Assembly (NCBI GenBank): GCA_035512775.1
Contig: DATKDI010000049.1
Coordinates: 17,137 to 81,136 of the forward strand
Source: Actinomycetota bacterium
Lineage (GTDB): Bacteria; Actinomycetota; UBA4738; HRBIN12
Length of the DNA: 64,000 nucleotides
Direction: 5' to 3'
Of this stretch, positions 12,213 to 61,574 are shown piece after piece. Made by a program: the position numbers and the translations under genes. Within the stretch, counting starts at the first letter, position 1; each line of letters opens with the position of its first letter. The notes under the pieces are model-generated. The model worked only from the letters and a program-made list of their open reading frames with translations, searched no databases and had not been told where the DNA came from.

Positions 12213-12228
12213 TCGAACATGTGTTCGA
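12213..12228. promoter_or_regulatory. LexA (SOS) box, actinobacterial/mycobacterial type TCGAAC-N4-GTTCGA
   Basis: Exact TCGAACATGTGTTCGA, overlapping the dnaE2 GTG start (12221) and lying in the divergent intergenic region with the DUF2630 gene. Confidence 0.7.
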
Positions 12229-15511: not shown

Positions 15512-15547
15512 TGGGCTCCGCGGGATGATGGGCTCCGCGGGATGATG
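15509..15547. repeat. tandem direct repeat 2.3 x 17 nt (TGATGGGCTCCGCGGGA) starting at the dnaE2 stop codon
   Basis: tgatgggctccgcggga tgatgggctccgcggga tgatg read directly. Because 17 is not a multiple of 3, the three TGAs fall in all three frames. Confidence 0.85.
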
Positions 15548-15583
15548 TCCTCGTGAGCCGACCGTGAGGATCCACGAGCATCC

Positions 15584-16762
15584 ATGACCCGTAGGCCGTC
15601 CGAGCCGATCCTCCACGTCGACCTCGACGCGTTCTATGCATCGGTCGCGATCCTGAAAGATCCGTCCTTGAAGGGGAAGCCGGTGATCGTCGGGGGGACC
15701 GGTGCGCGCGGGGTCGTCACCAGCGCTTCGTACGAGGCCAGGCGGTACGGGGTCCACAGCGCGATGCCGTCGGTCCGCGCGCGCCGGTTGTGCCCGGACG
15801 GGATCTTCCTCCCGCCGGACTTCGACGCCTATCGCGTCCACTCGAACCGTTTCCGGGAGGTCCTGCTCGCGCACACCCCGCTCGTGGAGCCGATCTCCAT
15901 GGACGAGGCGTTCCTCGACGTCGGCGGCGCCGTCATCCTGTTCGGCTCGCCGGAGACCATCGCGAAGAGGATCCGCCGTGAGGTCGCCGGGGAGGTCGGG
16001 ATCACCTGCTCGGTCGGCGTCGCCCCGACCAAGTTCGTGGCGAAGCTCGCCTCGGACGGCTGCAAGCCCGACGGGCTGCTCCACGTGCATGCGGGGGAGG
16101 TCGCGAACTTCCTCGAGCCTCTGGCCGTGGGGCGACTCTGGGGTGTGGGGGAGAAGACCGCAGAGGTGTTGGGGCGCTTGGCGATCCGGACGGTGGGCGA
16201 CCTGGGCAGGACGCCCGTGACGATCCTCGAGCGGCTCCTCGGAGAGGCGGCGGCGAGGCATCTCACCGAGCTGGCGAGCGGGATCGACGATCGGCCGGTA
16301 ATCGCGTACGAACGGCCCAAGTCCATCGGCCACGAGGAGACGTTCGATCGGGATCTGGACGACGAGGACGAGATCCTGCGCGAGCTGCTCGCGCTGTCCG
16401 GTCGGGTGGCGGCTCGTCTGCGGGAGGACGGGTACCGATCGAGGACGGTCACGCTGAAGGTCCGGCTCGCGAACTTCACGACGCTGACCCGTTCGCGGAC
16501 GCAGGCCGCTCCCACCGATCTGGGCGCCGATCTCCATCGGATCGTTTCGGAGCTGTACCGAGGTCTGCCGGGAGCCACGCGCCGGGTTCGGCTCCTGGGT
16601 GTCCAGGCGGGCGGGCTGGTCTCGGCCGGTGCCCAGCAATTGGCGCTTCTGCACACCGAACGCTGGGACGAGGTGGAGCGCACCGTCGACCGCATCGAGC
16701 GCCGTTTCGGTCCCGGTGCGGCGGGTCCCGCGAGCCTGCTCCGCCGGACTCCTCGACGGTAG
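15584..16762 (+). CDS. dinB: DNA polymerase IV (Y-family, DinB)
   Basis: ILHVDLDAFYASVAI...PVIVGG...RGVVTSASYEARRYGV...LPPDFDAYR...SMDEAFLDV...LWGVGEKT. Confidence 0.85.
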   Translation: MTRRPSEPILHVDLDAFYASVAILKDPSLKGKPVIVGGTGARGVVTSASYEARRYGVHSAMPSVRARRLCPDGIFLPPDFDAYRVHSNRFREVLLAHTPLVEPISMDEAFLDVGGAVILFGSPETIAKRIRREVAGEVGITCSVGVAPTKFVAKLASDGCKPDGLLHVHAGEVANFLEPLAVGRLWGVGEKTAEVLGRLAIRTVGDLGRTPVTILERLLGEAAARHLTELASGIDDRPVIAYERPKSIGHEETFDRDLDDEDEILRELLALSGRVAARLREDGYRSRTVTLKVRLANFTTLTRSRTQAAPTDLGADLHRIVSELYRGLPGATRRVRLLGVQAGGLVSAGAQQLALLHTERWDEVERTVDRIERRFGPGAAGPASLLRRTPRR

Positions 16763-16831: not shown

Positions 16832-17191
16832 ATGCCCCTCAACGAGAACGAGCAGAAGATCCTCGAGGAGATCGAGCGGCGCCTCTCCGAGGAGGACCCG
16901 AGGCTCGTCGAGCACGTCAACCGCACCGACCTCCACACGCACGCTTGGCGTCGGATGAAGATGGCGATCGCCGGATTCGTCTTCGGTCTCCTGCTGCTCC
17001 TGTTGGTTGGCATGTCCGTCTGGATCGCTGCCGGTGGTTTCGTCGTGATGACGCTGTCGGCGTTGCTCGCGTATCGCTACGCCGGCCGTCTCGGGGACGA
17101 CCGCATGGCTCCGGGCACCTTCGGAAGGATCGCCGCTCGCGTCGCCGGACGTCTCCGTCCGCCGGCTCCGGGTCGTCCCTCCGACGAGTGA
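16832..17191 (+). CDS. DUF3040 family membrane protein
   Basis: MPLNENEQKILEEIERRLSEEDPRL followed by two TM helices. Typical DUF3040 architecture. Confidence 0.6.
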   Translation: MPLNENEQKILEEIERRLSEEDPRLVEHVNRTDLHTHAWRRMKMAIAGFVFGLLLLLLVGMSVWIAAGGFVVMTLSALLAYRYAGRLGDDRMAPGTFGRIAARVAGRLRPPAPGRPSDE

Positions 17192-41804: not shown

Positions 41805-44800
41805 TCAACCCTCCTTCCTGAGGCTCACGACCACCGGCGTCGCCTCGAGCGTTCCTTCCAGCCGGAATCCGTCCACGCCGCTCGTCGCCACGCCGGCGGC
41901 CAACGTCTCGGCGGCGATCTCTTCCCCGTGCGTGGCCAGCACCTCTGCGGGTTCGCCGGACGTCTCCACCCCGAGCACGATCCGGTCCGTCACCTGGAGG
42001 CCGGCCTCCTTCCGGGCGTCCTGGATCATCCGGACGAGCTCGCGGGCGAGCCCTTCGCGTCGGAGCTCCGGCGTGATCTCGAGCTCGAGAGCGACCGTGA
42101 CGCCGCCCTCCGAGGCGACGCCCAACCCCGACCGGACGTCGTGGGTGAGCTGGACGTCGTCAGGTCCGATCGGGACGGGGGCCCCTTCGCCCGCGGCAAC
42201 CTCGATCTGCCCACCGTCGGCGAGTCGTCCCGCGAGCGTGCCGTCGTCCGCGGCCAGTGCGGCCGCGACGGCCTGGACACGCGGGCCGAGGCGAGGGCCG
42301 AGAACCTTGAAGTCCGGTCGAGCCCGCCATCGGCCGAAGACGTCTGCCGACCCCGCGACCTCGACGCGCTTGACGTTCAACTCCTCGGCGACCGTATCCC
42401 GCAATCGATCGAACGAGCCGGGCGTGTCGGCGAGATGCACCACCGCGGCAGGGAGCGGTTGCCGCGTTCGGGTCTTCGTCTCCGTGCGGATCCGCCGCCC
42501 CAGCTCCACGACCTGACGCGCGAGCGCCATCGCGTCGTCCAGACCCGGATCGACCGCCGCCTCGTCCACGCGCGGATAGTCCGCCAGATGCACCGAGTCG
42601 GGGCGGCCGCCACGTCCGGCGGCGAGGTTCGACCAGATCTCCTCGGAGACGAACGGGGTGAGCGGCGCGAGGAGCGTCGCCGCGGTGACCAGGCATTCGT
42701 GCAGCGTGTGGAACGCGGCGACGCTGTCGGCGCCGCCACTCCCGCCTGGGTTCCAGAACCGCCGGCGCGAGCGTCGCACGTACCAATTGGATAGGTCCTC
42801 GATGAACGCCTGGATCCGCCGACCGGCTCCCGTCACGTCGTAGCCGTCCATCCCGTCCCGGACTTCGCGAACGGTGCCGGCGAGTCGCGACAGGATCCAT
42901 CGGTCCAGCAGCGGTCGGGAGGACAGAGAAGGAGCGGGCTCGGCGTCGGGGTCGAACGCGTCCGCGTTCGCGTAGAGCACGAAGAACGAGTAGACGTGCC
43001 ACAGGGTGAGCAGGAACTGTCGCACCGCCTCCTCGAGGACGGTGTCGCCGAGTCGTCTCGACGACCAGGGGGACCCGCTCGTCAGGAGCACCCAGCGGAG
43101 CGCGTCCGCTCCATAGCGCTCCATCACTGTCATCGGATCCACGGCGTTGCCGAGCGACTTCGACATCTTCCGGCCCTGTTCGTCGACGATGAAACCGAAG
43201 CAGACGACGGTGCGGTAGGCGGTCGTGTCGAAGTGCAGGACCCCTTCCGCCATCAGTGTGTAGAACCAGCCGCGGGTCTGGTCGATCGCCTCGGAGATGA
43301 AGTCGGCGGGGAACCGCCGCCCGAACGGCTCCTCGCCCCGACCCAGCTCCGGGTGGTAGCCCCACTGCGCGAACGGCATCGCGCCGGAGTCGTACCAGGC
43401 GTCGATCACCTCGGGGACCCGTCGTGACTCCTCGCCGCACTCCGGGCACGGGAACGTGATCTCATCGATGGTGGGTCGGTGCGGATCGAGGTCCGTGAGA
43501 TCGCGTCCCGCCAGCGTGCCGAGCTCGACGAGCGATCCGATCGCGGTCACGTGCTCGGCCGGACACCGCCAGATCGGCAGCGGGGTACCCCAGTACCGCT
43601 CGCGAGAGAGCGCCCAGTCGACGTTGTTCTCGAGCCAGTTGCCGAAGCGCCCGTGCTTGATGTGATCGGGATGCCAGTCGACCTGGTCGTTGACGTCCAG
43701 GAGGCGCTCCTTGACGGCCGTCGTGCGGACGTACCAGGAGGTGCGCGCGTAGTGGAGGAGTGGGGTCTTGCACCGCCAGCAGAACGGATACGTGTGCAGG
43801 ATCGTCTCGGAACGGAGCAAGCGCCCGCGGGCGAAGAGGTCCTCGACGATCACGGGATCGGCGTCCTTCACGAACAGATCGCGGATGAACTCGGGGGCGA
43901 GATCAGTGAACCGGCCGTCGTCCCCGACCGGCTTGAAGACCGCCCAGCCCTGGGCGCGTCCGACCTCGAGGTCCTCGGGGCCGAACGCGGGGGCCAGGTG
44001 CACGATCCCGGTGCCGTCCTCCATCTGGACGAACGCGCCCGCGACGACGGTGTGCGCGCCCTCGACGTTCGCATAGGGCGGCTCGTACGTCGCTCCGAGG
44101 AGATCCTCCCCGCTGAGGGTCTTCCGGATCGTCCAACCGTCGCCGAGGGCCGCCGCGGCGAGCGGTTCGGCGACGATCAGTCGATCGTCGTCCTTCTCGG
44201 CCACGACGTAGGTGGCCGAGGCACCCACCGCGACGCCCGTGTTGGAGGGGAGCGTCCACGGCGTCGTGGTCCATACGAGCAGCGACGCGCCGACCAGGTC
44301 TGGGGCCGGCGGATCGACGATCGGGAACCTGACGTAGACGCTGGGGTCCTCGACCGATTCGTAGCCGAGGGCGACCTCGGCGTCGGAGAGCGCCGTCCCG
44401 CACCGGGGGCAATACGCGGTCACCTTGTCCGCCTCGATCAGCAGGCCGCGTTCGTGCAGACGCTTCAGCGACCACCAGACGGACTCGACATACGCGGGAT
44501 CCATCGTCCAGTAGGCGTCATCCATGTCGATCCAGAAGCCGATCCGGCGCGTCAACTCCTCCCAGTCGCGGACGTATCGTCGGACGGACACCCGGCACCG
44601 CTCGTTGAACTCGGCGACCCCGAACGCCTCGATGTCGCGCTTGCCGGAGGTTCCGATCTCTTTCTCCACCTCGATCTCGACAGGGAGCCCGTGGCAGTCC
44701 CAGCCGGCCTTGCGGTGCACGAGGTGGCCGGTCATCGTGCGGTAGCGGGGATAGACGTCCTTGAAGGTGCGGGTGACCGCGTGGCCGATGTGCGGCTTGG

Positions 44801-44975
44801 CGTTCGCCGTGGGAGGGCCGTCATAGAAGACCCACTCGGGGGCGTGCTCGCGCTGCTCGAGGGATCGATGGAAGACGTTCGCCTCCTCCCAGAACGCGAG
44901 GATCGAGCGCTCGAGCTCGGGGAAGCGCACCTTGGGGTCGACCGGCCGGAACCCTGGGCTCTCGTCGTTCGCCAT
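41805..44975 (-). CDS. ileS: isoleucine--tRNA ligase
   Basis: HIGH (PTANAKPHIGHA) and KMSKS (RKMSKSLGN) class-I motifs, with a CP1 editing domain. The start MANDESPG (ATG at 44975) has a GGGAGG RBS. It is convergent with divIVA, with a 6-nt stop-to-stop gap. Confidence 0.9.
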   Translation of the reverse strand: MANDESPGFRPVDPKVRFPELERSILAFWEEANVFHRSLEQREHAPEWVFYDGPPTANAKPHIGHAVTRTFKDVYPRYRTMTGHLVHRKAGWDCHGLPVEIEVEKEIGTSGKRDIEAFGVAEFNERCRVSVRRYVRDWEELTRRIGFWIDMDDAYWTMDPAYVESVWWSLKRLHERGLLIEADKVTAYCPRCGTALSDAEVALGYESVEDPSVYVRFPIVDPPAPDLVGASLLVWTTTPWTLPSNTGVAVGASATYVVAEKDDDRLIVAEPLAAAALGDGWTIRKTLSGEDLLGATYEPPYANVEGAHTVVAGAFVQMEDGTGIVHLAPAFGPEDLEVGRAQGWAVFKPVGDDGRFTDLAPEFIRDLFVKDADPVIVEDLFARGRLLRSETILHTYPFCWRCKTPLLHYARTSWYVRTTAVKERLLDVNDQVDWHPDHIKHGRFGNWLENNVDWALSRERYWGTPLPIWRCPAEHVTAIGSLVELGTLAGRDLTDLDPHRPTIDEITFPCPECGEESRRVPEVIDAWYDSGAMPFAQWGYHPELGRGEEPFGRRFPADFISEAIDQTRGWFYTLMAEGVLHFDTTAYRTVVCFGFIVDEQGRKMSKSLGNAVDPMTVMERYGADALRWVLLTSGSPWSSRRLGDTVLEEAVRQFLLTLWHVYSFFVLYANADAFDPDAEPAPSLSSRPLLDRWILSRLAGTVREVRDGMDGYDVTGAGRRIQAFIEDLSNWYVRRSRRRFWNPGGSGGADSVAAFHTLHECLVTAATLLAPLTPFVSEEIWSNLAAGRGGRPDSVHLADYPRVDEAAVDPGLDDAMALARQVVELGRRIRTETKTRTRQPLPAAVVHLADTPGSFDRLRDTVAEELNVKRVEVAGSADVFGRWRARPDFKVLGPRLGPRVQAVAAALAADDGTLAGRLADGGQIEVAAGEGAPVPIGPDDVQLTHDVRSGLGVASEGGVTVALELEITPELRREGLARELVRMIQDARKEAGLQVTDRIVLGVETSGEPAEVLATHGEEIAAETLAAGVATSGVDGFRLEGTLEATPVVVSLRKEG

Positions 44976-45275
44976 CCGCTCGCCTCCCGACACGCGAAAC
45001 GCCTCGTCCTCGTCTCGCGAGGACGAGGCGCGAGCCCCGCGGTACCACCTCGCTTGCCGGATGCCTTGCGGCGGTCCGGCCGCTCGCGGCCGCGATCACG
45101 GCCTGCCGCTGTGACGGGCGGACCCGCCTGCGTCTACTGGGAGCCGGGGTCCGGCTCGGTTCGGGCAGGGGCTCGGGGAGGATGTCCGCGGGGCGCTCGG
45201 CGCCGGGCTTCCACCGTCCCCGGCTCGCTCTCGCTCTGCGGTCCTCGCAACGTGTTCCCGTCGTCGCCTTCGCGT
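44976..45275 (-). promoter_or_regulatory. T-box riboswitch leader of ileS
   Basis: On the minus strand, a T-box consensus GAGGUGGUACCGCG (forward 45038-45053) sits immediately 5' of a perfect 13-bp terminator stem (45000-45030, CGCCUCGUCCUCG...CGAGGACGAGGCG). After it comes UUUCGCG, then an RBS and the ileS ATG. A candidate Ile specifier AUC lies upstream (forward gat ~45181). Confidence 0.55.
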
Positions 45276-45551: not shown

Positions 45552-45992
45552 GTGCGGCCGGCGATGGGCGTGGCCGATGCGCCGACGTGCTACCCTTCGC
45601 CTCTTATGGCGCAGGCCAAGCTCACCGCGAAGGAGCTCGACGACCTCCGGGCCCGGCTCCAGGAAGAGCGCACCCACCTCGAGGCGCAGCTCGTCTCGAT
45701 CGTCGAGGGTTCCTTCGCGGCAACACAGTCGGATCTGTCGGGGGACGTGGGGCTCGACGACGAATCGGCGGACGCCGGCACCGCCACGTTCGAGCGGGAG
45801 AAGGACCTGTCGATCGAGAACAACGTTCGAGACCTCCTGCGGAAGATCGAGGGCGCGTTGAAGCGCATGGATGCGGGGACCTATGGCCTCTGCGAGCGTT
45901 GCGGCAAGCCGATCGAGAAGGCACGGATCAAGGCCTTGCCGTACGCGGAGCTCTGCATCAAGGACGCGCAGGCGGCGCAGTCGCGTCGCTGA
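45552..45992 (+). CDS. DksA/TraR-family C4-type zinc-finger protein
   Basis: A C-terminal CxxC...CxxC finger, YGLCERCGKPIEKARIKALPYAELCIKD, preceded by a coiled-coil. The start is possibly the internal MAQAK (45606). Confidence 0.65.
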   Translation: MRPAMGVADAPTCYPSPLMAQAKLTAKELDDLRARLQEERTHLEAQLVSIVEGSFAATQSDLSGDVGLDDESADAGTATFEREKDLSIENNVRDLLRKIEGALKRMDAGTYGLCERCGKPIEKARIKALPYAELCIKDAQAAQSRR

Positions 45993-45995
45993 CCC

Positions 45996-46529
45996 GTGGA
46001 CGCGCGGCGGAGCCGGGCGGCCCGAACGCTCTTCGTCGTGGCTGTCGTCTCCTACGGCCTGGACCGGCTCACGAAGATCTGGGCCGAGGCGGCCCTCCCC
46101 GGCTCTCCGATCGACGTCGTGCCGGGCGTGCTCACGTTGCGATTCACGACCAACTCCGGCGGTGCATTCAGCATCGGCCAGAGCGCCCCGTGGTTCTTCG
46201 TCGGGGTGTCGGCGGTCGTGGTTGCGATCATCCTCGCCACCTCGCTCCGGCACACCAGCCGGATCGTCGGCGCGGGTCTGGGACTGGTGCTCGGTGGAGC
46301 GCTCGGCAACCTCACGGATCGCGCCTTCCGGGATGAGGGCTTCCGAGGACGCGTCGTCGACTTCATCGACTTCCACGTGTGGCCGATCTTCAATCTGGCC
46401 GATTCCGCGATCGTGATCGGCGCGATCGTGCTCGCGTGGGCGGGGACGCGGGAACGGCCGCGAGAGCGGCCGGGGGAGGGGCCAGGGGAGGAGAACGAGC
46501 AGCCAGAGCCGACGGCGGCGCCACGATGA
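45996..46529 (+). CDS. lspA: lipoprotein signal peptidase II
   Basis: RFTTNSGGAFS, FDFHVWPIFNLADSAI catalytic Asp motifs and 4 TM helices. Confidence 0.85.
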   Translation: MDARRSRAARTLFVVAVVSYGLDRLTKIWAEAALPGSPIDVVPGVLTLRFTTNSGGAFSIGQSAPWFFVGVSAVVVAIILATSLRHTSRIVGAGLGLVLGGALGNLTDRAFRDEGFRGRVVDFIDFHVWPIFNLADSAIVIGAIVLAWAGTRERPRERPGEGPGEENEQPEPTAAPR

Positions 46530-47410
46530 AGCGGACGCTCGTGGCCGAGGCGGGGCGGCTCGATGCCGTCATCGCGCGGATGACCGGCGAGGCGCGAGCG
46601 GACGTCCAGCGCGCGATCACCTCGGGGAAGGTACAGGTCGACGGCGAGCCGCGGCCGAAATCGTTCCGCTTGCGCGGTGGCGAGCGGGTGACGCTCGAGA
46701 TCGAGCGGGACGAGCCCGTCGCCGCGGAGGGGCCTCCGGTGCCGATCCGCTACGAGGACGACCACCTCCTCGTGATCGTGAAGCCCGCCGGCCTCGTGAC
46801 GCATCCCACCGCCGGCCGGCGCGGAGGGACGCTCGTGAACCGACTGCTCGGGATGGGCGTCCGCCTGGCGCCGGCCGGCGGCCCGCTCCGTCCCGGCATC
46901 GTGCACCGGCTGGACGTGGGCACCTCCGGGCTGCTGGTCGTGGCCAAGACCGATGAGGCCTACGCGGCACTGAGAAGCATGTTCGGCGTCCATGCTTTGG
47001 AGCGAGGGTATCTCGCGCTCGTGCGGGGTGCGGTGGCCAACGACTCCTTCGCCGTCGACGCGCCGCTCGGCCGGCGCGCGGCCAAGATCGTCGTGGACGC
47101 GACCGAGGGCAGGGAGGCGGAGACGGGGTTCGAGGTCCGCGAGCGGTTGGACGGCGCGACGCTCTTGGAGGCGGTCCCGCGAACCGGACGTACGCACCAG
47201 ATCCGGGTGCACCTGGCGGCGATCGGGCATCCGATCCTGGGGGATCGCGCGTACGGCGGGGGCGGGAACGATGCTCGCCGGGCGGGGCTCGACCGCCCGT
47301 TCCTGCACGCCTGGCGCCTGTCGTTCACCCACCCGATCGGCGGTGCCCGGGTCGAGGTGGTGGAGGAACTTCCCGAGGAGCTCGTCGAGGCGCTCGCTCG
47401 GTTCCGATGA
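46526..47410 (+). CDS. rluD: RluA/RluD-family pseudouridine synthase with N-terminal S4 domain
   Basis: HRLDVGTSGLLVVAKT catalytic Asp motif. ATGA overlap with lspA. ORF-track start 46379 is an in-frame run-on. Confidence 0.8.
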   Translation: MKRTLVAEAGRLDAVIARMTGEARADVQRAITSGKVQVDGEPRPKSFRLRGGERVTLEIERDEPVAAEGPPVPIRYEDDHLLVIVKPAGLVTHPTAGRRGGTLVNRLLGMGVRLAPAGGPLRPGIVHRLDVGTSGLLVVAKTDEAYAALRSMFGVHALERGYLALVRGAVANDSFAVDAPLGRRAAKIVVDATEGREAETGFEVRERLDGATLLEAVPRTGRTHQIRVHLAAIGHPILGDRAYGGGGNDARRAGLDRPFLHAWRLSFTHPIGGARVEVVEELPEELVEALARFR

Positions 47411-47502: not shown

Positions 47503-50500
47503 GTGGAAAACCCCTCTCCGGAGGTCGCCACGGCAGCGCGAGAAGGTTTCGTCCATCTGCACGTTCACTCCGAGTATTCGCTGCTGGACGGGGCTGCCCG
47601 CATCGAGGCTCCCGCGGCCAACCGAGCCGCCCCGACGATCTTCTCGGAAGCGCAGCGTATGGAGATGCCGGCCATCGCCGTCACCGATCACGGGGTGATG
47701 TTCGGCGCCCTCCCGTTCTACGAGGCGGCGCATGCCCACGGCATCAAGCCGATCCTGGGGGTCGAAGCCTACGTCGCGCCGGGTTCGCGATTCGACCGCG
47801 AACCCGGGGAGAACGAGGAGAAGTACCACCACCTGACGCTGCTCGCCCGCAACGAGACGGGCTACCGGAACCTGCTGAAGCTCGTGTCGGCGGCGCACCT
47901 CGAGGGCTTCTACCACCGCCCGCGCATGGACAAGCAGCTCCTGGCGGAGCACGCCGAGGGGCTGACCTGCCTGTCCGGTTGCCTGTCGTCGGAGCTGTCG
48001 AAGTTCCTGCTCACGGAACAGGAGGCTCGAGCGCGGGCGGTGGCCGCCGAGTACCGGGACATCTTCGGCGCCGGCAACTACTGGATCGAGCTCCAGGACC
48101 ACGGCCTCTCGGAGCAGCGCCGGGTGACGCCGCGGCAGGTGTCCCTCGCGCAGGAGCTCGGCATCGGTCTGGTCGCGACCAACGACCTGCACTACACGTC
48201 GGCCGACGACGCCAAGCCGCACGACGTGTTGCTCTGCATCCAGCAGCAGAAGTTGCAGACGGACCCGAAACGGCTCCGCTTCGACTCCGAGGAGTTCTAC
48301 CTGAAGTCGGCGGAGCAGATGCGGGCACTCTTCGCGGAGCTCCCCGAAGCGTGCGACCACACGCTCGAGATCGCGGAGTCGGTGGAGCTCGAGCTCATCT
48401 ACGGCGACGCCGCTCCGCTCGAGGAGCGCTACCACCTGCCTCGATTCGAGGCGCCGAACGGGCAGTCGCTCGAGGCCTATCTGCGGGAGCTCACGCTCAC
48501 CGGGGCGGCCCAGCGGTACGGGGATCCGTTGCCGTCGGAGATCGGAGATCGGCTCGACTTCGAGATGAGCGTGATCCTGCAGATGGGGCTCGCCGGGTAC
48601 TTCCTGATCGTCTGGGATCTGATCCGATTCGCCCGAGAGCAGGGCATCCGCGTCGGACCCGGGCGGGGTTCGGCAGCGGGCTCGGTCGTGTCCTATTGCC
48701 TGCGCATCACCGACGTGGATCCGCTCCGGTACGGGTTGATCTTCGAGCGCTTCCTGAACCCGGAGCGGATCCAGATGCCGGACATCGACATGGACTTCGA
48801 CGAGCGTCGCCGCGACGAGGTGATCAGGTACGCCAGCACCAAGTACGGCGCCGACCACGTCGCCCAGATCGTCACGTTCCAGACGATCAAAGGCAAGCAG
48901 GGGATCCGCGACGCCGCGCGCGTCCTCGGCTTCCCGCCGTCGGTGGGGGACCGTCTCTGCAAGATGTACCCGTCGCCGGTCATGGGTCGCGATCACCCGA
49001 TCGAGGAGGCCCTGCGGCTGTCCCCGGAGCTCGCGACCGCCTACGAGGGCGAACCCGAGGCGAAGGAGATCGTCGACACGGCGCGAGCGCTCGAGGGGCT
49101 GCGCCGCGAGGACTCGGTGCACGCCGCCGGCGTCGTGATCGGCGACGCGCCGCTGGTGCGGTATCTCCCGCTGAAGCTGTCGAAGGATTCCCGCGACGAT
49201 TCCAAGCGCATCGTCACGCAGTTCGACATGCACGGGGTGGAGAAGCTGGGTCTGCTCAAGATGGACTTCCTCGGACTGCGCAACCTGTCCGTGATCGAGG
49301 ACACGCTCCGGCACCTCCGCGTCGACGGGGTGGAGATGGATATCGACCACGTCGCGCTGGACGATCCGGAGACCTACGCGATGCTCCGCCGAGGGGAGAC
49401 GACCGGCGTGTTCCAGATGGAGTCGGGCGGCATGCGCAGCCTGATCAAGCTCCTGGAGCCCGACCGGTTCGAGGACCTGATGGCGCTCGTCGCCCTCTAC
49501 CGCCCCGGGCCTCTCAACAACGGCCTGCACACCGAGTACGCCGAGCGGAAGCACGGGCGCAAGCCCGTGACCTACCCGCATCCCGACCTCGAGCCGATCC
49601 TGCGGGGGACGTACGGCGTGATGGTCTACCAGGAGCAGGTGATGCAGATCGCCGTGGCGATGGCCGGATTCTCGATGGGCGAAGCCGACACACTCCGCAA
49701 GGCGATGGGCAAGAAGAAGATCGAGTACCTGATGCCGTTCAAGGAGCGCTTCGTGAAGGGAGCCGTCGATCGCGGCTATCCGGAGCGAGGGGCCGCGGAC
49801 ATGTTCGAGATGTTCGTCCCGTTCGCCGACTACGGGTTCAACGCCTCCCATGCGTGCGCCTACGGTCTGGTCGCGTACCAGACCGCGTACCTGATGGCGC
49901 ATCACCCCGTCTCGTACATGGCGGCGATCCTCACCTCGGTCAAGGACGACAAGGACCGCAAGCCGTATTACCTGTACGCGTGCCGCGCGATGGACATCGA
50001 GGTGCTGCCGCCCGACGTCAACGATTCCGCGCTCGACTTCGCCCCGGCGGCGGGTGGTGGCAGGGCGATCCGGTACGGATTGTCCGCGGTGCGCAACGTC
50101 GGCGACGGGGCCGTGCAGCAGATCATCGAGGCGCGTGCGGAGAAGGGCCGCTTCGAGTCCTACTCCGACTTCTGTCGGAAGGTCGACCCGTCGGTCCTCG
50201 CGAAGCGGATGCTGGAGTCGTTGGTCCTGGCCGGTGCGTTCGACTCACTGGGGTACCGGCGGCGGGCGCTGCTGATCTCACAGGACAAGGTGTCCGGTCC
50301 GATCGCCGCCGAGCGCAAGGCGGAGGCGGCAGGGCAGTTCTCCCTGTTCGGCGGGGACTCGGAGGTCGGACAGATCGACGAGTCGGTCCTGCAGGGCGAG
50401 GAGTTCGACAAACCGGAGCTCCTCCGCTACGAGAAGGAGATGCTCGGGCAGTTCGTCTCGGACCACCCGCTCCTCGAGGTGGCGGATGCCCTGCGAGCGC

Positions 50501-51054
50501 AGAGCTCGCACGAGATCGGCGATCTCGACGGCGCCGACGACGGCGAGCTCGTGACCGCGGCCGGGATCATCGGTGGGGTCGCCAGGAAGTACACGAAGCG
50601 CGGGGAGCCGTACGCCCAGTTCCGCCTCGAGGGACTGGCGGCTGGCGTCGAGGTGGTGGCGTTCCCCTCGGTGTACGAGGCCGATCCCGACCTCATCTCG
50701 GCGGACCGGATCGTGGTGGTCGTCGGTCGCATCGACCGGCGGGGGCGGGAGCTCCAGATCCGGGCGAACGAGGTGCGCGAGCCCATCCTCGTCGGTGTGG
50801 AGACACAGTCGGATCCCGGGTCCGTGGTGATCGACCTCACGGCGGCGGCATGCACCGATGCGGTGTTGGCCAAGATGGCCGAGCTGTTGCGTTCCCGGCC
50901 GGGGCCTGCACCCGTGAAGGTGCGATTCCACTCCTCTGCCGGCGTGCGACCACTCGACATGGGCGAGTTCCGCGTGGACTCCTCGGCCGCGCTGATGGGG
51001 GAGCTCACAGGACTGCTCGGCACGGGCTCCGCCCGCGTGGAACGCTTCGCCTGA
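47503..51054 (+). CDS. dnaE: DNA polymerase III alpha subunit (replicative DnaE1)
   Basis: 1183 aa. PHP FVHLHVHSEYSLLDGA, palm PDIDMDF, fingers LGLLKMDFLGLRNLSVI, and an OB domain. The neighbourhood lspA-rluD-dnaE1 is conserved, as in Mycobacterium and Streptomyces. Confidence 0.9.
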   Translation: MENPSPEVATAAREGFVHLHVHSEYSLLDGAARIEAPAANRAAPTIFSEAQRMEMPAIAVTDHGVMFGALPFYEAAHAHGIKPILGVEAYVAPGSRFDREPGENEEKYHHLTLLARNETGYRNLLKLVSAAHLEGFYHRPRMDKQLLAEHAEGLTCLSGCLSSELSKFLLTEQEARARAVAAEYRDIFGAGNYWIELQDHGLSEQRRVTPRQVSLAQELGIGLVATNDLHYTSADDAKPHDVLLCIQQQKLQTDPKRLRFDSEEFYLKSAEQMRALFAELPEACDHTLEIAESVELELIYGDAAPLEERYHLPRFEAPNGQSLEAYLRELTLTGAAQRYGDPLPSEIGDRLDFEMSVILQMGLAGYFLIVWDLIRFAREQGIRVGPGRGSAAGSVVSYCLRITDVDPLRYGLIFERFLNPERIQMPDIDMDFDERRRDEVIRYASTKYGADHVAQIVTFQTIKGKQGIRDAARVLGFPPSVGDRLCKMYPSPVMGRDHPIEEALRLSPELATAYEGEPEAKEIVDTARALEGLRREDSVHAAGVVIGDAPLVRYLPLKLSKDSRDDSKRIVTQFDMHGVEKLGLLKMDFLGLRNLSVIEDTLRHLRVDGVEMDIDHVALDDPETYAMLRRGETTGVFQMESGGMRSLIKLLEPDRFEDLMALVALYRPGPLNNGLHTEYAERKHGRKPVTYPHPDLEPILRGTYGVMVYQEQVMQIAVAMAGFSMGEADTLRKAMGKKKIEYLMPFKERFVKGAVDRGYPERGAADMFEMFVPFADYGFNASHACAYGLVAYQTAYLMAHHPVSYMAAILTSVKDDKDRKPYYLYACRAMDIEVLPPDVNDSALDFAPAAGGGRAIRYGLSAVRNVGDGAVQQIIEARAEKGRFESYSDFCRKVDPSVLAKRMLESLVLAGAFDSLGYRRRALLISQDKVSGPIAAERKAEAAGQFSLFGGDSEVGQIDESVLQGEEFDKPELLRYEKEMLGQFVSDHPLLEVADALRAQSSHEIGDLDGADDGELVTAAGIIGGVARKYTKRGEPYAQFRLEGLAAGVEVVAFPSVYEADPDLISADRIVVVVGRIDRRGRELQIRANEVREPILVGVETQSDPGSVVIDLTAAACTDAVLAKMAELLRSRPGPAPVKVRFHSSAGVRPLDMGEFRVDSSAALMGELTGLLGTGSARVERFA

Positions 51055-51090: not shown

Positions 51091-51807
51091 GTGCTCGGCG
51101 TGTTCGAGGTCATCCCCGCGATCGACGTGAGCGACGGCGCCCTCGCCGCTCTCACACCGGCGGGACCGCGGCCCGCGAAGGCGTTCAGAGGGGATCCGGT
51201 CGCCGCCGCGGAAGCGGCGGTGACGGCGGGCGCCCGGTGGCTCCACGTCGTGGACATGGACCTCGCCTTCCGAGGTGAAGCCCGGAACCTCGGGATCATG
51301 GCCGAGATCGCCTCGCTCCCCGTCGCCGTCCAGGCGGCGGGTGGCGTACGCGACGCCGAGGAGGTTCGAGCCCTCTTCGACGCGGGGGCCACGCGGGTCG
51401 TCCTCGGATCGGCAGCCCTCGCGGACGAGCACGGGGCGACGGCGCTCCTATCGGCGGAGGGACCTCGCCTCGCGATCGGGATCGAGGTGGACCAGGGGCG
51501 CATCCGCTCCCGCGGCCGCGACCCGGTCGACCTGCCGTTGCTCGAGACCCTCGGGTGGGTCGTCGCCGCCGGTGGCGCCGTGCTGCTCGTGACCTCGGTC
51601 GACCGCGTGGGAACGCGCGGGGGTCCGGACCTCGAGCTGGTGAAGCGGGTGGGGCGCGCCGGCCGCGCCGTGCTGGCGGCCGGGGGGATCGCGTCCATCG
51701 CGGACCTGCTCGACCTCCGGGCGGCCGGCGTGGCGGGCGCGGTCGTCGGGAGCGCGGCGCTCGACGGCTCGCTGGATCTGGCGGCGGCGATCGCCGAGGT
51801 GACCTGA
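51091..51807 (+). CDS. HisA/HisF-family (beta/alpha)8-barrel isomerase, PriA/TrpF-like, encoded as first gene of the trpCBA operon
   Basis: VIPAIDVSDGALAAL...GARWLHVVDMDLAF...AVQAAGGVRD...VVLGSAAL...IGIEV...LLVTSVDRVGTRGGPDLELVKRV...VLAAGGIAS. A GTG start sits 37 nt after the dnaE stop, and trpC follows 37 nt after its own stop. Confidence 0.65.
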   Translation: MLGVFEVIPAIDVSDGALAALTPAGPRPAKAFRGDPVAAAEAAVTAGARWLHVVDMDLAFRGEARNLGIMAEIASLPVAVQAAGGVRDAEEVRALFDAGATRVVLGSAALADEHGATALLSAEGPRLAIGIEVDQGRIRSRGRDPVDLPLLETLGWVVAAGGAVLLVTSVDRVGTRGGPDLELVKRVGRAGRAVLAAGGIASIADLLDLRAAGVAGAVVGSAALDGSLDLAAAIAEVT

Positions 51808-51843
51808 GGCCGGGATCGACCGGCGGTCTAGACTCGCCGCCCC

Positions 51844-52629
51844 ATGGGGTTCCTCAGCGATCTCGTCGAGCGGCTCGAGCGGGACCTGCACGAGCACCCG
51901 CTCGACGATCTGGCGTTGATGGCGCGCGCATCCGCGATGCCGCCGGTGCGAGATCTCGAAGCGGCCCTTCGGCTCGCGGAGCCGCCCGCGTTGATCGCCG
52001 AGGTGAAGCGCGCCTCGCCGTCGGCCGGGATGATCGCGGAGCAGGTGAACCCGAGCGTGCTCGCCAGGGGGTACGAGGCGGGCGGCGCCGCGGCCGTCTC
52101 GGTCCTCACGGAGCCCCGGCACTTCCAAGGGTCTCTCGCGGACCTGCAGGCGGCTCGCTCGTCGGTGTCGATCCCGGTGCTACGGAAGGACTTCCTGATC
52201 CACCCGTCCCAGGTGATCGAGGCGAGGGCCTCGGGCGCCGATGCCGTCCTGTTGATCGTGGCGGCCCTGACGGACACACAGCTCCGGGCGCTCCTGGAAA
52301 CCGCCCGCGACCTCGGTCTCGGCGCGCTCGTGGAGACGCATTCGGATGAGGACCTGCGGCGTGCGCTCGAGACCGACGCCGGCATCATCGGGGTCAACGC
52401 GCGGGACCTCGAGACCCTCGAGGTCGACGTCGACGCGGCGCTGGCCCGGATCGGAGGAGTGCCGGAGGACCGGATCTCGGTGCTGGAGAGCGGGATCTCG
52501 ACCCGGGCGAACGTCGACGCCGCGCTCGAGGCGGGGGCGTCTGCCATCCTGGTGGGCGAGGCGCTGATGCGCGCGGACGACCCTGCCCGCGCCGTGAGGA
52601 AGCTCCTCTGGAGGGAACTCCGCACATGA
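51844..52629 (+). CDS. trpC: indole-3-glycerol phosphate synthase
   Basis: [13 protein letters not shown]...[11 protein letters not shown]...[14 protein letters not shown]...ALVETH...[12 protein letters not shown]. Confidence 0.9.
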
Positions 52630-53819
52630 CGATCGCCGCCACCGTCCCCGACGCTCCCGGCCGGTTCGGTACCTACGGGGGTCGCTACGTCCCGGAGGTC
52701 CTGATCCCCGCGCTGGACGAGCTGGCGGACGCTTGGTCCCGGCTGCGGGAGGATCCCGGCTTCCGGACCGAGCTCGCGTCGCTCTCGAGGGACTTCGTCG
52801 GGCGCCCGACGCCGCTCACCTTCGCCGCCCGGCTCTCCACCGGGCTCGGCTACCGCGTCTGGCTCAAGCGGGAGGACCTGGCACACACCGGCGCCCACAA
52901 GATCAACAACGCGCTGGGCCAAGCGCTCCTCGCGAAGCGCCTCGGCAAGGAGCGGATCATCGCCGAGACCGGCGCGGGGATGCACGGCGTGGCGACCGCG
53001 ACGGCGTGCGCTCTCCTGGGTCTGCCCTGCGTCGTCTACATGGGGGAAGAGGACACGCGACGGCAGGCGCCCAACGTCTCCCGGATGAAGCTGCTCGGCG
53101 CCGAGGTGGTCCCGGTCACGGCGGGCTCGAAGACCTTGAAGGAAGCCGTGAACGAGGCGCTCCGCGACTGGGCCGCGTCGGTCCGGACGACCCACTACAT
53201 CATCGGGTCGGTCGTGGGGCCGCACCCGTTCCCCGTCCTCGTGCGAGACCTCCAGCGGGTGATCGGTGACGAAGCACGACCCCGGTTCCGGGACGAGAAC
53301 GACGGAGCCGAGCCCGACGTCGTCGCTGCATGCGTCGGTGGTGGCAGCAACGCGATCGGGATGTTCACGGCGTTCGTGGGCGCAGCGGGCGTCCGGCTGA
53401 TCGGCGTCGAGGCCGGTGGCCGAGGGACGACCCTCGGTGAGCATTGCGCCTCGCTCACCCAAGGCGAGCCGGGCATCCTCCATGGTGCGCTCACCTATCT
53501 GCTGCAAGACGATGACGGGCAGGTCGCCGACACCCACTCGATCTCCGCTGGCCTCGACTATCCGGGGGTCGGACCGGAGCACGCCTATCTCCGCGACGCC
53601 GGTCTGGCCGAGTACGTGAGCGCCTCGGACGACGACGCCCTCGCGGGCTTCCAAGCGCTCGCGCAGACCGAGGGGATCATCCCCGCACTCGAACCCGCCC
53701 ATGTGATCGGCTGGCTCCTCCGGAAACCTCTTCCCGAGGGGACGTCGGTCCTCGTTTGCCTCTCGGGACGCGGCGACAAGGACCTCGAGACGGTGCGGGC
53801 GAAGCTCGGGATCACGTAG
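52626..53819 (+). CDS. trpB: tryptophan synthase beta subunit
   Basis: [13 protein letters not shown]...[20 protein letters not shown] (PLP-Lys)...[12 protein letters not shown] overlap with trpC. Confidence 0.9.
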
Positions 53820-54590
53820 GTGGGGCGGCTCGAGGAGGCGCTGCGCGCCCGCCGCGACGCCGGCGGGCGCGCGTTCGTGCCGTACGTGACGGGAGGGTAT
53901 CCGGGTGTGGACACCGGTCTGCTCCGACGGCTCGAAGCCGCCGGCGCAGACGCCATCGAGGTCGGCATCCCGTTCTCCGACCCGGTGATGGACGGTGGCG
54001 TGATCCAGGAGGCCTCCGCCGAGGCGCTTCGCTTGGGCACCCGGCCATTCGACGTCCTCGCGATGATCCGGGAGGCAGCGATCCACGTCCCGGTCGCCGT
54101 CATGACGTACGTGAACCCGGTCTACCGGCACGGCATCGGCTCGTTCCTGGACGAGGTCGTGGCGTCGGGCGTCGCCGGCCTGATCGTCCCCGACCTACCC
54201 GTGGACGAGTCGGGCGACCTCGAGGAGGCAGCGGTGGCCCGCGGACTGGACGCGGTGCTTCTTGCCGCGCCCGGGAGCACGACTGGACGCCTGGCCGAGA
54301 TCGGCCGCCGTTCACGCGGGTTCGTGTACTGCGTCGCCACCTACGGCGTGACCGGCACCCGCGACCACCTGGACACGGCGGCGAGAGCCCTCGTGGACGC
54401 CCTCCGGCCCCACACGGACCTTCCCCTCCTGTTGGGGGTGGGGATCGGCGCGCCCGAGCAGGCAGCGGAAGCATGTACCTTCGCAGACGGGGTGGTGGTC
54501 GGAAGCGCCTTGATGGCGCGCGTCCTCGGAGGGGACCTCGACGGTGCCGTCGGCCTCGCGAGGGACTTCCGGACCTCGATCTCCGCCTGA
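53820..54590 (+). CDS. trpA: tryptophan synthase alpha subunit
   Basis: FVPYVTGGYPG...IEVGIPFSDPVMDG...GFVYCVATYGVTG. GTG immediately after the trpB stop. Confidence 0.85.
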   Translation: MGRLEEALRARRDAGGRAFVPYVTGGYPGVDTGLLRRLEAAGADAIEVGIPFSDPVMDGGVIQEASAEALRLGTRPFDVLAMIREAAIHVPVAVMTYVNPVYRHGIGSFLDEVVASGVAGLIVPDLPVDESGDLEEAAVARGLDAVLLAAPGSTTGRLAEIGRRSRGFVYCVATYGVTGTRDHLDTAARALVDALRPHTDLPLLLGVGIGAPEQAAEACTFADGVVVGSALMARVLGGDLDGAVGLARDFRTSISA

Positions 54591-59807: not shown

Positions 59808-60535
59808 CCGGAGACGGCCGCGCGCCCATCCTCGAGCTTCGGAACGTCAGCACGCACTACGGCCTCGTGGCGGTGCTTCGCGACGTCGACATGGAGATCT
59901 ACGCGGGTGAGATGGTCTGTCTCCTCGGCGGCAATGCGAGCGGGAAGACGACCACGCTGAAGACGATCCTCGGCTACGTCACGCCCTCGGAGGGCGAGGT
60001 GGTACTGGACGGTCAGGTCGTCTCCGGGCTCTCCACGACCGAGGTCGTGAAACGCGGCGTCTCGATGGTCCCGGAGAACCGTCGCCTCTTCGGGGACATG
60101 ACCGTCGACGAGAACCTCCAGCTCGGCGCGTACCTGCGGAAGGATCGGAACGTGGTCGAGCAGACGAGAGAGACCGTCTTCGAGACCTTCCCTCGGATCC
60201 GCGAGCGGCTCAAACAGAAGGCGGGCACCCTCTCGGGGGGAGAGCAGCAGATGGTCGCGATGGGTCGCGCGTTGATGGCCGACCCCAAGATCCTGCTGAT
60301 GGACGAGCCCTCGATGGGTCTGGCCCCGATCCTGGTGGAACAGGTCTTCGAGATCATCCGGAAGATCCGGGAGCTGGGGAAGACGATCTTCGTGGTCGAG
60401 CAGAACGCCAACATGGCGCTGTCGATCGCCGACCGGGGCTACGTGATCCAGACCGGCCAGGTCGTGCTCGCGGACACGGCGGCGAACCTCCTGGAGAACC
60501 CCTTGATGCGCGAGGCCTATCTGGGTGAGCTCTGA
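59804..60535 (+). CDS. livF: branched-chain amino acid ABC transporter ATP-binding protein (LivF-like)
   Basis: Walker A GGNASGKTT, signature LSGGEQQMVAMGRAL, Walker B ILLMDEPSMGLAP. GTGA overlap with livG. Confidence 0.85.
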   Translation: MTGDGRAPILELRNVSTHYGLVAVLRDVDMEIYAGEMVCLLGGNASGKTTTLKTILGYVTPSEGEVVLDGQVVSGLSTTEVVKRGVSMVPENRRLFGDMTVDENLQLGAYLRKDRNVVEQTRETVFETFPRIRERLKQKAGTLSGGEQQMVAMGRALMADPKILLMDEPSMGLAPILVEQVFEIIRKIRELGKTIFVVEQNANMALSIADRGYVIQTGQVVLADTAANLLENPLMREAYLGEL

Positions 60536-61454
60536 GCTCCGCGTGATCGACGCGGAGGAGCTCCGCGCCCGGCTGCCCATGGAGGCGGCGGTGGATGCGC
60601 TCGAGGAAGCGTTCCGGACACTCGACCCGGGGAGCGGGCCGCTCCGAACGCATGTCGAGACACCCGCCGGCACGCTCCTGCTGATGCCGGCGTTCGGCGA
60701 GGCGGGCGTCGGCGTGAAGCTCGTCTCACTCACCCCGGCCAACCCGGACCGGGGACTCCCGTTCATCCATGCGAGCTACGTGCTCTTCCACGCCGCCACG
60801 CAGGCTCCGGAGGCGGTGCTCGACGGCTCGGCGCTGACGGCTCTCCGGACGGCCGCCGTCTCCGGGCTCGCGACCCGGTTCCTCAGCCGAGAGGACGCGC
60901 ATCGCCTCGTCATCTTCGGGGCGGGCGTCCAGGCAAGGTCGCACCTCGAGGCGATGTGCGCCGTGCGCGACGTGACGGACCTCGTCGTCGTCTCCCGGTC
61001 GCCCGGAGCGGCCGAGGCCCTCGTGGAAGAGGGGCTCGGCCGCGGGTTGACGGCGCGGCGGGGTGAACCGGAAGCGGTCGGCGAGGCAGACCTCGTGTGC
61101 ACGTGCACGACCGCGGAGACACCGTTGTTCGAGGGGTCGTTGCTGCCGGCGGGGGTGCACGTGAACGCGGTGGGTTCCTACCAGCCCGAGACCCGCGAGC
61201 TGGATACCGAAGCCCTTCGCGGCGCGAGGGTGGTCGTCGAGACGCGAGAGGTCGCGCTCGCCGAGGCCGGCGACCTGCTCATCCCGATCGAGGAAGGGGT
61301 CATCCAGGCCGGTCACATCGTCGCCGACCTGTCCGAGATGGTTCGGGGTGCCGCGGTGCGACGCTCGCCGGGGGACGTGACGCTCTTCAAGAGCGTGGGG
61401 CTGGCGTTCGAGGATCTGGTCGTTGCGCGGGCGGTCGTGGACGCGGGGCGATGA
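60525..61454 (+). CDS. ornithine cyclodeaminase/mu-crystallin family protein
   Basis: A Rossmann VIFGAGVQARSHLEAM region and the overall OCD-family length. It overlaps the livF end by 11 nt. Confidence 0.6.
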   Translation: MSSELRVIDAEELRARLPMEAAVDALEEAFRTLDPGSGPLRTHVETPAGTLLLMPAFGEAGVGVKLVSLTPANPDRGLPFIHASYVLFHAATQAPEAVLDGSALTALRTAAVSGLATRFLSREDAHRLVIFGAGVQARSHLEAMCAVRDVTDLVVVSRSPGAAEALVEEGLGRGLTARRGEPEAVGEADLVCTCTTAETPLFEGSLLPAGVHVNAVGSYQPETRELDTEALRGARVVVETREVALAEAGDLLIPIEEGVIQAGHIVADLSEMVRGAAVRRSPGDVTLFKSVGLAFEDLVVARAVVDAGR

Positions 61455-61488: not shown

Positions 61489-61574
61489 GGTGCCGGGAGA
61501 GGGGCTCGAACCCTCACGAGCCGAAGCTCACGGGTTTTTGAGACCCGCGCGTCTACCAGTTCCGCCATCCCGGC
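61489..61574 (-). tRNA. tRNA-Leu (anticodon CAA), type-II long variable arm; CCA not encoded
   Basis: The reverse complement folds by eye into a cloverleaf with anticodon loop CUCAAAA (CAA), a long variable arm and a GTTCGAGCC T-loop. Read as GCCGGGATGGCGGAACTGGTAGACGCGCGGGTCTCAAAAACCCGTGAGCTTCGGCTCGTGAGGGTTCGAGCCCCTCTCCCGGCACC. Confidence 0.85.

Follow-up and report, generated by a model that had tools for sequence, protein, structure and literature searches.

A HisA-like barrel gene ahead of trpCBA in uncultured Actinomycetota as a candidate dedicated phosphoribosylanthranilate isomerase

What reaction is catalyzed by a lone barrel enzyme of histidine-pathway ancestry whose gene stands at the head of a tryptophan gene cluster? 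The question is raised by a 64-kb stretch of Actinomycetota DNA (positions 17,137 to 81,136 of contig DATKDI010000049.1, assembly GCA_035512775.1; hereafter the window, meaning the whole stretch analyzed), in which a HisA-like gene at 51091-51807 lies between dnaE1 and trpC-trpB-trpA. In Streptomyces and Mycobacterium, a block of his genes occupies the interval between dnaE1 and the trp genes. We propose, with a probability of about 0.65, that the gene product is a dedicated phosphoribosylanthranilate (PRA) isomerase (TrpF) derived from the HisA/PriA lineage, in an uncultured clade of Actinomycetota; a preliminary description of the locus had suggested that the gene supplies TrpF activity, and on the sequence evidence this is the best-supported reading. 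The TrpF role is favored because the gene is linked to trpCBA, because residues that bind the HisA substrate ProFAR are lost and Asp11, His50, and Arg143 are retained, because a catalytic aspartate is replaced by the valine introduced in engineered HisA and HisF variants, and because of apparent intermediates, selection, and operon signals.

Five plus-strand genes were called as open reading frames (ORFs), head to tail, between 47.5 and 54.6 kb:

47503-51054 (+): dnaE1, DNA polymerase III alpha subunit, 1183 amino acids; its TGA stop ends 36 nt before the start of the HisA-like gene
51091-51807 (+): HisA-like barrel gene, 238 amino acids, GTG start, PF00977; proposed PRA isomerase (TrpF), a member of the subfamily termed Group A below
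51844-52629 (+): trpC, indole-3-glycerol-phosphate synthase, 261 amino acids; PF00218 265 bits, NF001377 268 bits (cut-off 260)
52626-53819 (+): trpB, tryptophan synthase beta subunit, 397 amino acids; TIGR00263 566 bits (cut-off 392)
53820-54590 (+): trpA, tryptophan synthase alpha subunit, 256 amino acids, GTG start; TIGR00262 223 bits (cut-off 102)

The preliminary description had this layout right, including the protein length and the overlap of trpC with trpB, although the intergenic gaps on the two sides of the HisA-like gene, which it gave as 37 nt, are both 36 nt. The trpC/trpB overlap is 4 nt (ATGA), which suggests translational coupling of the two genes, and the GTG start of trpA abuts the trpB stop. 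Neither terminator-like nor promoter-like sites were found between the genes from dnaE1 to trpA, and there was no Rfam match to a regulatory RNA or attenuator upstream of the HisA-like gene; an attenuator at that place is also disfavored because the 36-nt gap leaves no room for one. The guanine-plus-cytosine (GC) content is ~70% across the whole window and that of third codon positions (GC3) is ~0.90 in all four genes from the HisA-like gene to trpA, as expected of real genes in a 70% GC genome. The window was searched (tblastn) with E. coli HisG, HisD, HisC, HisB, HisH, HisA, HisF, HisI, TrpE, TrpD, and the TrpF domain; matches were confined to the HisA-like gene, trpC, trpB, and trpA, such that the earlier statement that no other his gene is seen holds for these 64 kb, in which no trpE, trpD, or trpF was found either. 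The substrate of TrpC is the product of the TrpF step.

The encoded protein matches the His_biosynth family (PF00977) at 148.4 bits (cut-off 23.6; E = 2.9e-43) over its full length, with residues 6-228 aligned to profile positions 1-227 of 228. It scores below the equivalog cut-offs of both HisA (TIGR00007; 143.4 versus 228.95 bits) and PriA (TIGR01919; 113.1 versus 306.45 bits), and Pfam and NCBIfam scans gave no match to the canonical TrpF family (PF00697, PRAI). An AlphaFold2 (AF2) model (predicted local distance difference test score, pLDDT, 92.9; predicted template modeling score, pTM, 0.90) has eight strand/helix units, a predicted (β/α)8 barrel. Foldseek with this model returned PriA structures first, the best matches being PriA of M. 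tuberculosis and S. coelicolor (2Y85, 1VZW) with template modeling (TM) scores of 0.86-0.90 and 33-37% identity; PriA, HisA, and HisF structures were found at TM 0.8-0.9, and the matches also included 2W79 and 4EWN. Judged by these models, the protein does not qualify as a standard HisA or as a standard PriA. Members of the subfamily have been named ProFAR isomerase (Joint Genome Institute, JGI), "bifunctional ... PriA" (Prokaryotic Genome Annotation Pipeline, PGAP: P0469, P0484), and, for another relative named by PGAP, [quoted passage not shown].

The identical protein is on record only on a 3.3-kb Logan contig. The search for relatives yielded more than 120 proteins at 68-92% identity, all in metagenomes or metagenome-assembled genomes (MAGs), and a HMMER search over 1.84 billion representatives gave hits that split cleanly by residue pattern. 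With positions numbered as in M. tuberculosis PriA (verified against 2Y85), three sets were compared: a canonical HisA/PriA set (n = 221), defined by Trp145; Group A (n = 285 pooled sequences, every one of metagenome or MAG origin; ~45 clusters when grouped at 50% identity), which includes the window protein; and Group B (n = 52), retrieved with a profile built from three sequences that join Group A in the tree described below. The literature searched contained no description of the trp-linked Group A subfamily. The residue census was as follows:

Asp11: Group A 281/285, Group B 50/52, canonical 219/221
Arg19: Group A 118/285, Group B 46/52, canonical 217/221
His50: Group A 285/285, Group B 52/52, canonical 221/221
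Arg85: Group A 166/285 (lost in 119, 42%), Group B 4/52, canonical 219/221
Asp130: Group A 6/285 (Glu in 279), Group B 51/52, canonical 221/221
Arg143: Group A 283/285, Group B 52/52, canonical 107/221
Trp145: Group A 0/285, Group B 0/52, canonical 221/221 (a group-defining position; true by construction for Group B and the canonical set)
Thr170: Group A 275/285, Group B 48/52, canonical 219/221
Asp175: Group A 0/285 (Val in 271), Group B 52/52, canonical 220/221 (likewise group-defining and true by construction for the latter two sets)

The Group A pattern is therefore Asp11, Ser/Ala81, Glu130, Arg141-x-Arg143, no Trp145, Thr170, and Val175, as against Gly or Ser81, Asp130, Trp145, and Asp175 in the canonical set; position 81, usually Gly in HisA, carries the PriA-typical Ser in 140/285 Group A members. 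In PriA and HisA, Arg19, Arg85, Thr105, Trp145, and Thr170 bind ProFAR, Asp11 and Asp175 are catalytic, and Asp130 helps to shape loop 5 (PMC13055916, PMC9088769); Asp175 is regarded as the catalytic acid in both PriA reactions (PMC9088769). Arg143 is tied to the use of PRA (PMC4732765, PMC9088769), and in SubHisA its replacement by Asn accompanies the loss of TrpF activity (PMC4732765). Loss of ProFAR determinants (Trp145, Arg85, Thr105, Arg19) marks the SubTrpF and SubTrpF2 enzymes, which are TrpF-only by experiment (PMC13055916, PMC5404923). The residue pattern of Group A corresponds to this TrpF-only signature, to which two further changes, close to fixation, are added at acidic positions. 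Across the family the barrel and its two Gly-rich phosphate loops hardly vary, and 14 columns are invariant in a family alignment that reaches down to 41% identity.

The window protein itself has Asp12, Ala20, His52, Ala83, Arg87, Ser107, and Glu132 in its first part and Arg139, Arg141, Arg143 (replacing Trp), Thr168, Ser169, and Val173 in its second. Its diagnostic codons are:

51124-51126 (+): Asp12, equivalent to PriA Asp11; proposed general base
51484-51486 (+): Glu132, equivalent to PriA Asp130; the Asp-to-Glu change is a hallmark of the subfamily
51505-51519 (+): loop-5 motif R139-S-R141-G-R143, equivalent to PriA R141-G-R143-G-W145
51607-51609 (+): Val173, equivalent to PriA Asp175 (HisA Asp169/176, HisF Asp176), in the local motif LLVTSVDRVGT

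From the PriA active-site set (Asp11, Arg19, Asp130, Arg143, Trp145, Asp175), only Asp11 and Arg143 are kept; the remainder are changed (Arg19 to Ala, Asp130 to Glu, Trp145 to Arg, Asp175 to Val). The HisA catalytic aspartate pair (Asp7/Asp176 in S. enterica, Asp11/Asp175 in PriA) is broken, with Asp12 at the first site and Val173 at the second, and the set that grips ProFAR in HisA is incomplete (no Trp145, Ser for Thr105, Arg85 kept). For the PriA-specific loop residues to which the preliminary description had drawn attention, the outcome is divided: in loop 5, the equivalent of the PRA-binding Arg143 is retained, but the ProFAR-stacking Trp145 is replaced by Arg. The protein has in common with PriA the residues Asp11, His50, Arg141, and Arg143, the C-terminal phosphate site, and the ancestral dnaE1...trp neighborhood; unlike PriA, it is without Arg19, Trp145, Asp171, and Asp175, Glu replaces Asp130, and its gene lies outside a his operon.

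One Group A subclade (P0466, P0473, P0475, P0478, P0481, P0483, P0493, P0496, P0498, P0500, P0507, P0521) has Asp176 directly after Val175, in place of an otherwise conserved Gly, together with Glu at 171, and so carries an acidic residue one position later in loop 6; its member P0473 has the usual dnaE-X-trpCBA context, X being the HisA-like gene.

The genomic setting of the gene is as conserved as its residues. The genomes of relatives were read as ~20-kb pieces around each hit. All 24 Actinomycetota genome loci (24/24; 50-88% identity to the window protein; the scan of genome contigs gave a single locus for each MAG) show dnaE, the HisA-like gene, and trpC, followed by trpB and trpA where the contig is long enough, and ~55 metagenome loci at 42% identity or above, found by a scan with the family alignment, all show dnaE-X-trpC-trpB-trpA. 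This order was present at every one of the 76 loci checked for context. The distant Group A members P0473 and P0484 (the latter from GCA_005885395.1), in which Arg19 is still present, have the same context. The assemblies bearing trp-linked genes include ERZ25039551, ERZ25039533, ERZ28573615, GCA_005885395.1, ERZ27297438, and GCA_037024515.1. Because it recurs across these genome and metagenome loci, the arrangement is not a chance adjacency, and the physical joining of the hisA-like gene to the trp genes, noted before for the window, is found in every relative examined. The DnaE proteins of the carrier clade have diverged to ~67-72% identity, with the gene still in one genomic position. Within 10 kb of the subfamily loci checked, there is no his gene and no PF00697 trpF; the sole homolog of the E. 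coli TrpF domain among the scanned loci lies in an unrelated operon (L139).

The region ahead of dnaE1 is likewise conserved, and in the window it consists of:

41805-44993 (-): ileS (Pfam), the start of the conserved upstream synteny block
45552-45992: dksA-type zinc finger gene (Pfam)
45996-46529: lspA (Pfam)
46379-47410: rluD-type pseudouridine synthase gene (Pfam), the true start of which is probably later

The order ileS-dksA-lspA-rluD also precedes dnaE in distant contigs that bear subfamily genes. The ordinary Actinomycetota loci among the scan hits have his genes ahead of the trp genes, namely hisD-C-B-H-priA-hisF-hisI and then trpC (L026, Lawsonella) or hisC-B-H-A-F-I, trpE, and then trpC-B-A (L144). 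The view of the locus as a compacted dnaE1...trpCBA region that retains only the hisA-like gene is borne out by the ileS-dksA-lspA-rluD-dnaE1 block, which is without his genes and trpE. The window DnaE1 scores 984 bits against M. tuberculosis DnaE1 (7pu7) and 945 bits against T. aquaticus (phmmer against the PDB), which suggests a deep-branching lineage.

Some loci depart from the compact spacing. About 8 kb separate dnaE from the HisA-like gene in two MAGs (L009 and L010, 2200-10000), versus the usual 36-100 nt, and the gap is ~700 bp in L006, L012, L015, L021, L086, and L090-L092; no his genes were found in these enlarged gaps by the search based on E. coli proteins. In L007 (CAVZUH010000004.1, 10001-10712), the HisA-like frame is broken, with two overlapping tblastn pieces and an ORF of 207 amino acids. 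As dnaE, trpB, trpC, or trpA is likewise split in L004, L005, L007, L010, L012, L015, and L018 (MFD assemblies), the broken frames in these assemblies are probably assembly indels, not pseudogenes.

The Group B pattern is Gly81, Arg85 mostly lost, mostly Ala105, Asp130, Arg143, no Trp145, and Asp175. It differs from Group A in that Asp130 (51/52) and Asp175 (52/52) are kept; in P0451, P0432, and P0453 it occupies the slot dnaE-X-(Trp_oprn_chp)-trpC-trpB-trpA behind the same lspA-rluD block as in Group A. A few Group A members (P0125, L126) combine Asp130 with Val175, and, together with Group B, they are apparent intermediates. A reasonable order of changes would be that the gene first became separated from the his genes, then lost Trp145 and Arg85, and then acquired Asp175 to Val and finally Asp130 to Glu. 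In a neighbor-joining (NJ) tree with 200 bootstraps, Group A and three Group B representatives cluster at 74%; in the same tree an affinity to the PriA clade, rather than to HisA of A. ferrooxidans or to Gemmatimonadota homologs, receives only 47%, and Group A may have originated from PriA or from an older HisA.

Other HisA-like genes turned up beside these groups. On a metagenome contig of 42% GC (L134, JACCDG011443776.1, 10001-15094), dnaE and a HisA-like gene are followed by trpE-trpC-trpB-trpA; the protein has Ser81, Asn85, Ser145, and Asp175, a SubTrpF-like pattern in a similar position but apparently in a different lineage. Gemmatimonadota (L023, L025, L028; 10001-10700) encode lone HisA homologs, 35-40% identical to the window protein, that share with it the motif WLHVVDMDRAF, are without Trp145 and Arg85, and keep Asp130 and Asp175; no his or trp genes were found within 10 kb in L023 and L025 (E. 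coli-based tblastn), and these homologs may be another non-HisA offshoot. Downstream of the Group B gene on ERZ25039551 contig_7519 (L158, 12264-14246), a call of 660 amino acids with PALP (TrpB) and Trp_syntA domains represents a trpB-trpA fusion or else an artifact of a frameshift in long reads; dnaE is also fragmented on the same contig. Many representatives of 460-516 amino acids (P0133, P0142, P0149, P0158, P0164, P0169, P0172-P0174, P0189, P0196, P0202, P0215, P0250) have two tandem His_biosynth domains, the first with the HisA pattern (Trp145, Asp175) and the second with the HisF pattern, and appear to be HisA-HisF fusions.

Among known systems, the functional likeness of the window protein is, by analogy, most like SubTrpF/SubTrpF2 and the engineered HisA/HisF variants. 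SubTrpF2 of Ornithinimicrobiaceae has the PriA/HisA fold, rescues trpF mutants only, and coexists with a his-operon hisA (Rosas-Becerra et al., 2026, PMC13055916); it carries R19Q, R85A, T105S, W145S, and T170A and keeps both catalytic Asp residues (PMC13055916). The window protein is changed at positions 19, 105, and 145 too. However, SubTrpF2 retains Asp175 and Asp130, has no trp gene beside its own gene, and is limited to two cultured genera, whereas Group A has Val175 and Glu130 and is fixed before trpCBA in an uncultured clade. SubTrpF of Actinomyces, which descends from PriA and is present in single copy, has TrpF activity only (Juarez-Vazquez et al., 2017, PMC5404923); its Trp139 (equivalent to Trp145) is variable and its Arg83 (equivalent to Arg85) is often missing, the same pattern as in Group A. 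SubTrpF differs in having arisen as host-associated bacteria with reduced genomes lost the his pathway, and in keeping both catalytic Asp residues, whereas Group A belongs to high-GC bacteria, many from soil metagenomes, and the acid Asp is gone. The window protein thus resembles SubTrpF and SubTrpF2 in its loss of ProFAR determinants (no Trp145, no Arg19) and departs from them at the second catalytic Asp (Asp175 to Val); as HisA, PriA, SubTrpF, and SubTrpF2 are defined, it appears to lie outside all four. The earlier suggestion of a sub-functionalised TrpF-only derivative fits better than a bifunctional PriA, but the protein is more remodeled than was supposed.

The engineered variants, the substitutions of which were read from PDB sequences, offer a parallel for the acidic positions. 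T. maritima HisF 4EWN (D130V and D176V; motif LLTSIDRVGT) was solved with rCdRP, which is an analogue of the TrpF product, 1-(o-carboxyphenylamino)-1-deoxyribulose 5-phosphate (CdRP); T. maritima HisA 2W79 carries H75Y, F111S, D127V, and D169V (motif EIEKVGT), and 2CFF carries D127V only. Val is found at the same loop-6 acid position in Group A (271/285; DRVGT in the window protein), in 2W79 (KVGT), and in 4EWN (DRVGT), and the second acidic position, on strand β5, is altered in both the engineered variants and Group A. The β5 Asp is replaced by Val in the laboratory variants but by Glu in the natural Group A, which also remodels loops 1 and 5. In substrate-assisted catalysis of the TrpF reaction, the anthranilate carboxylate of PRA would supply the acid function. 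TrpF activity on HisA and HisF scaffolds is reportedly due to substrate-assisted catalysis (Reisinger et al., 2012). If catalysis on the Val variants is substrate-assisted, then the missing acid Asp is no longer the main objection to a TrpF role; ProFAR would be expected no longer to be turned over, because it is without such a carboxylate.

On the proposed mechanism, the HisA-like enzyme would convert PRA to CdRP and so feed the adjacent TrpC. Asp12 would be the base that abstracts the C2' proton, Arg139 and Arg141 of loop 5 would hold the anthranilate carboxylate, the single phosphate would bind to the intact C-terminal site (AAGGIAS, VVGSA), and the ring oxygen would be protonated either by the carboxylate of the substrate itself (substrate-assisted catalysis) or by Glu132. 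To make histidine, the organism would then require another hisA at a different place in its genome. The canonical HisA proteins closest to the trp-linked groups, P0522 (GCA_041643075.1) and P0512 (GCA_040961535.1), are both encoded in hisC-B-H-A-F-I-G operons on actinobacterial contigs of ~70% GC. The carrier clade may thus have a his operon of its own, although the sample accessions of these HisA proteins match none of the samples that bear trp-linked genes. A more specific view, to which we give somewhat less than even odds and which we offer tentatively, is that Group A is a natural HisA-fold PRA isomerase without the general-acid Asp, using substrate-assisted catalysis or the β5 Glu, with its stepwise path extant, and hence nature's equivalent of what directed evolution did with HisA and HisF; the path would lead from a PriA-like enzyme in a his operon via a Group B form to the Asp175Val/Asp130Glu Group A.

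Several observations count against a dedicated PRA isomerase. The lost Asp175 is the catalytic acid of both PriA reactions (PMC9088769), such that the chemistry could differ; Glu at position 130 retains a negative charge, which is gone from the engineered variants; the subclade of the window protein keeps Arg87 (equivalent to Arg85) and, in the N-terminal phosphate site, the GG motif; and PGAP labels P0469 and P0484 as bifunctional PriA.

An alternative that we regard as unlikely is that the protein catalyzes another reaction in or around tryptophan metabolism (of Amadori type, or on a phosphosugar) or is a non-catalytic scaffold or TrpC partner, with PRA isomerization provided by another gene. 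In its favor, because Asp175 is lost and Asp130 changed, the PriA mechanism cannot operate as described, no equivalog model is matched, and the ratio of nonsynonymous to synonymous substitution rates (dN/dS) is about twice that of trpC. By pairwise Nei-Gojobori estimates against four relatives, dN/dS is 0.26-0.32 for the HisA-like gene, 0.12-0.21 for trpC, and 0.14-0.23 for trpA; the gene is under purifying selection, about twofold more relaxed than on its neighbors. Against a different function stand the near-invariance of Asp11, His50, Arg143, the phosphate loops, and the barrel, and the fact that the Val is the exact substitution by which engineered HisA and HisF gain in TrpF activity; moreover, TrpF is the step without a gene in these trp clusters.

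The PGAP labels would sit well with a true bifunctional PriA, the sole HisA homolog serving both pathways through an unusual active site with Glu132 as general acid, an option raised in the preliminary description that the residues disfavor and that we consider improbable. The gene does derive from the slot that priA fills in other Actinomycetota, with dnaE1 on one side and the trp genes on the other; the PriA-typical Ser81 is present in about half of Group A, Arg143 is kept, as are Arg87 and the GG motif in the window subclade, and no second hisA was found in the window or in any 20-kb locus. However, Trp145 and Asp175 are absent from all 285 Group A sequences and Arg19 from 167/285, and in characterized enzymes the HisA reaction is abolished when such residues are mutated or lost (PMC13055916, PMC5404923). 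ProFAR has no carboxylate to replace the missing acid, the loss of Arg85 in 42% of members implies no constraint on the second phosphate site, and the scores of the window protein fall far below the equivalog cut-offs (113 bits versus 306 for PriA, 143 versus 229 for HisA).

That the gene is a redundant, drifting relic of a former his operon copy is very improbable: selection is somewhat more relaxed than on the neighboring genes and positions 19, 85, and 145 are variable, but nearly every locus has an uninterrupted frame of full length, dN/dS is ~0.3, the 14 columns stay invariant down to 41% identity, and one genomic position is kept across a clade whose DnaE proteins are at ~67-72% identity. 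A HisA-only enzyme that adjoins the trp genes by accident, with trpF elsewhere, agrees with the ProFAR isomerase names given by annotation pipelines (JGI) but is hardly credible, given that it meets the same residue evidence as a bifunctional PriA and would leave unexplained why Arg143 is so strictly conserved although HisA can dispense with it (107/221 canonical sequences).

PriA, HisA, and TrpF form a textbook system for the gain, sharing, and loss of enzyme substrates. If the stepwise path from a PriA-like enzyme through Group B to Group A holds, a bifunctional step would have been re-split into two dedicated enzymes without a canonical trpF ever being regained. In the natural TrpF-only enzymes known to descend from PriA, the standard catalytic pair is kept and linkage to trp genes is absent, in contrast to Group A. 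If Group A is active as proposed, the engineered Asp-to-Val route would be one that is used in nature, a native enzyme would be available for testing substrate-assisted catalysis, and apparent intermediates (Group B and the members with Asp130 and Val175) would be preserved for reconstructing the path. Given the current annotations (ProFAR isomerase, PriA, TIM barrel), both the histidine and the tryptophan pathways of this abundant uncultured clade are probably miscalled in metabolic reconstructions.

The remainder of the window carries, further upstream, a dcw cluster with ftsZ and, downstream of trpA, a branched-chain amino-acid ABC transporter (Pfam). A second DnaE-type polymerase (12221-16762; 1096 amino acids; 32% identical to dnaE1; PHP, DNA_pol3_alpha, finger, and HHH_6 domains) is directly followed by a Y-family polymerase (IMS, IMS_C), and the pair looks like a mutagenesis cassette of DnaE2 with an ImuB-type or DinB-type partner. 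No rRNA was found in the 64 kb. The only Rfam match in the window is a single tRNA at 61491-61574 (-), which adjoins a gene of the ornithine cyclodeaminase/mu-crystallin family (60525-61454).

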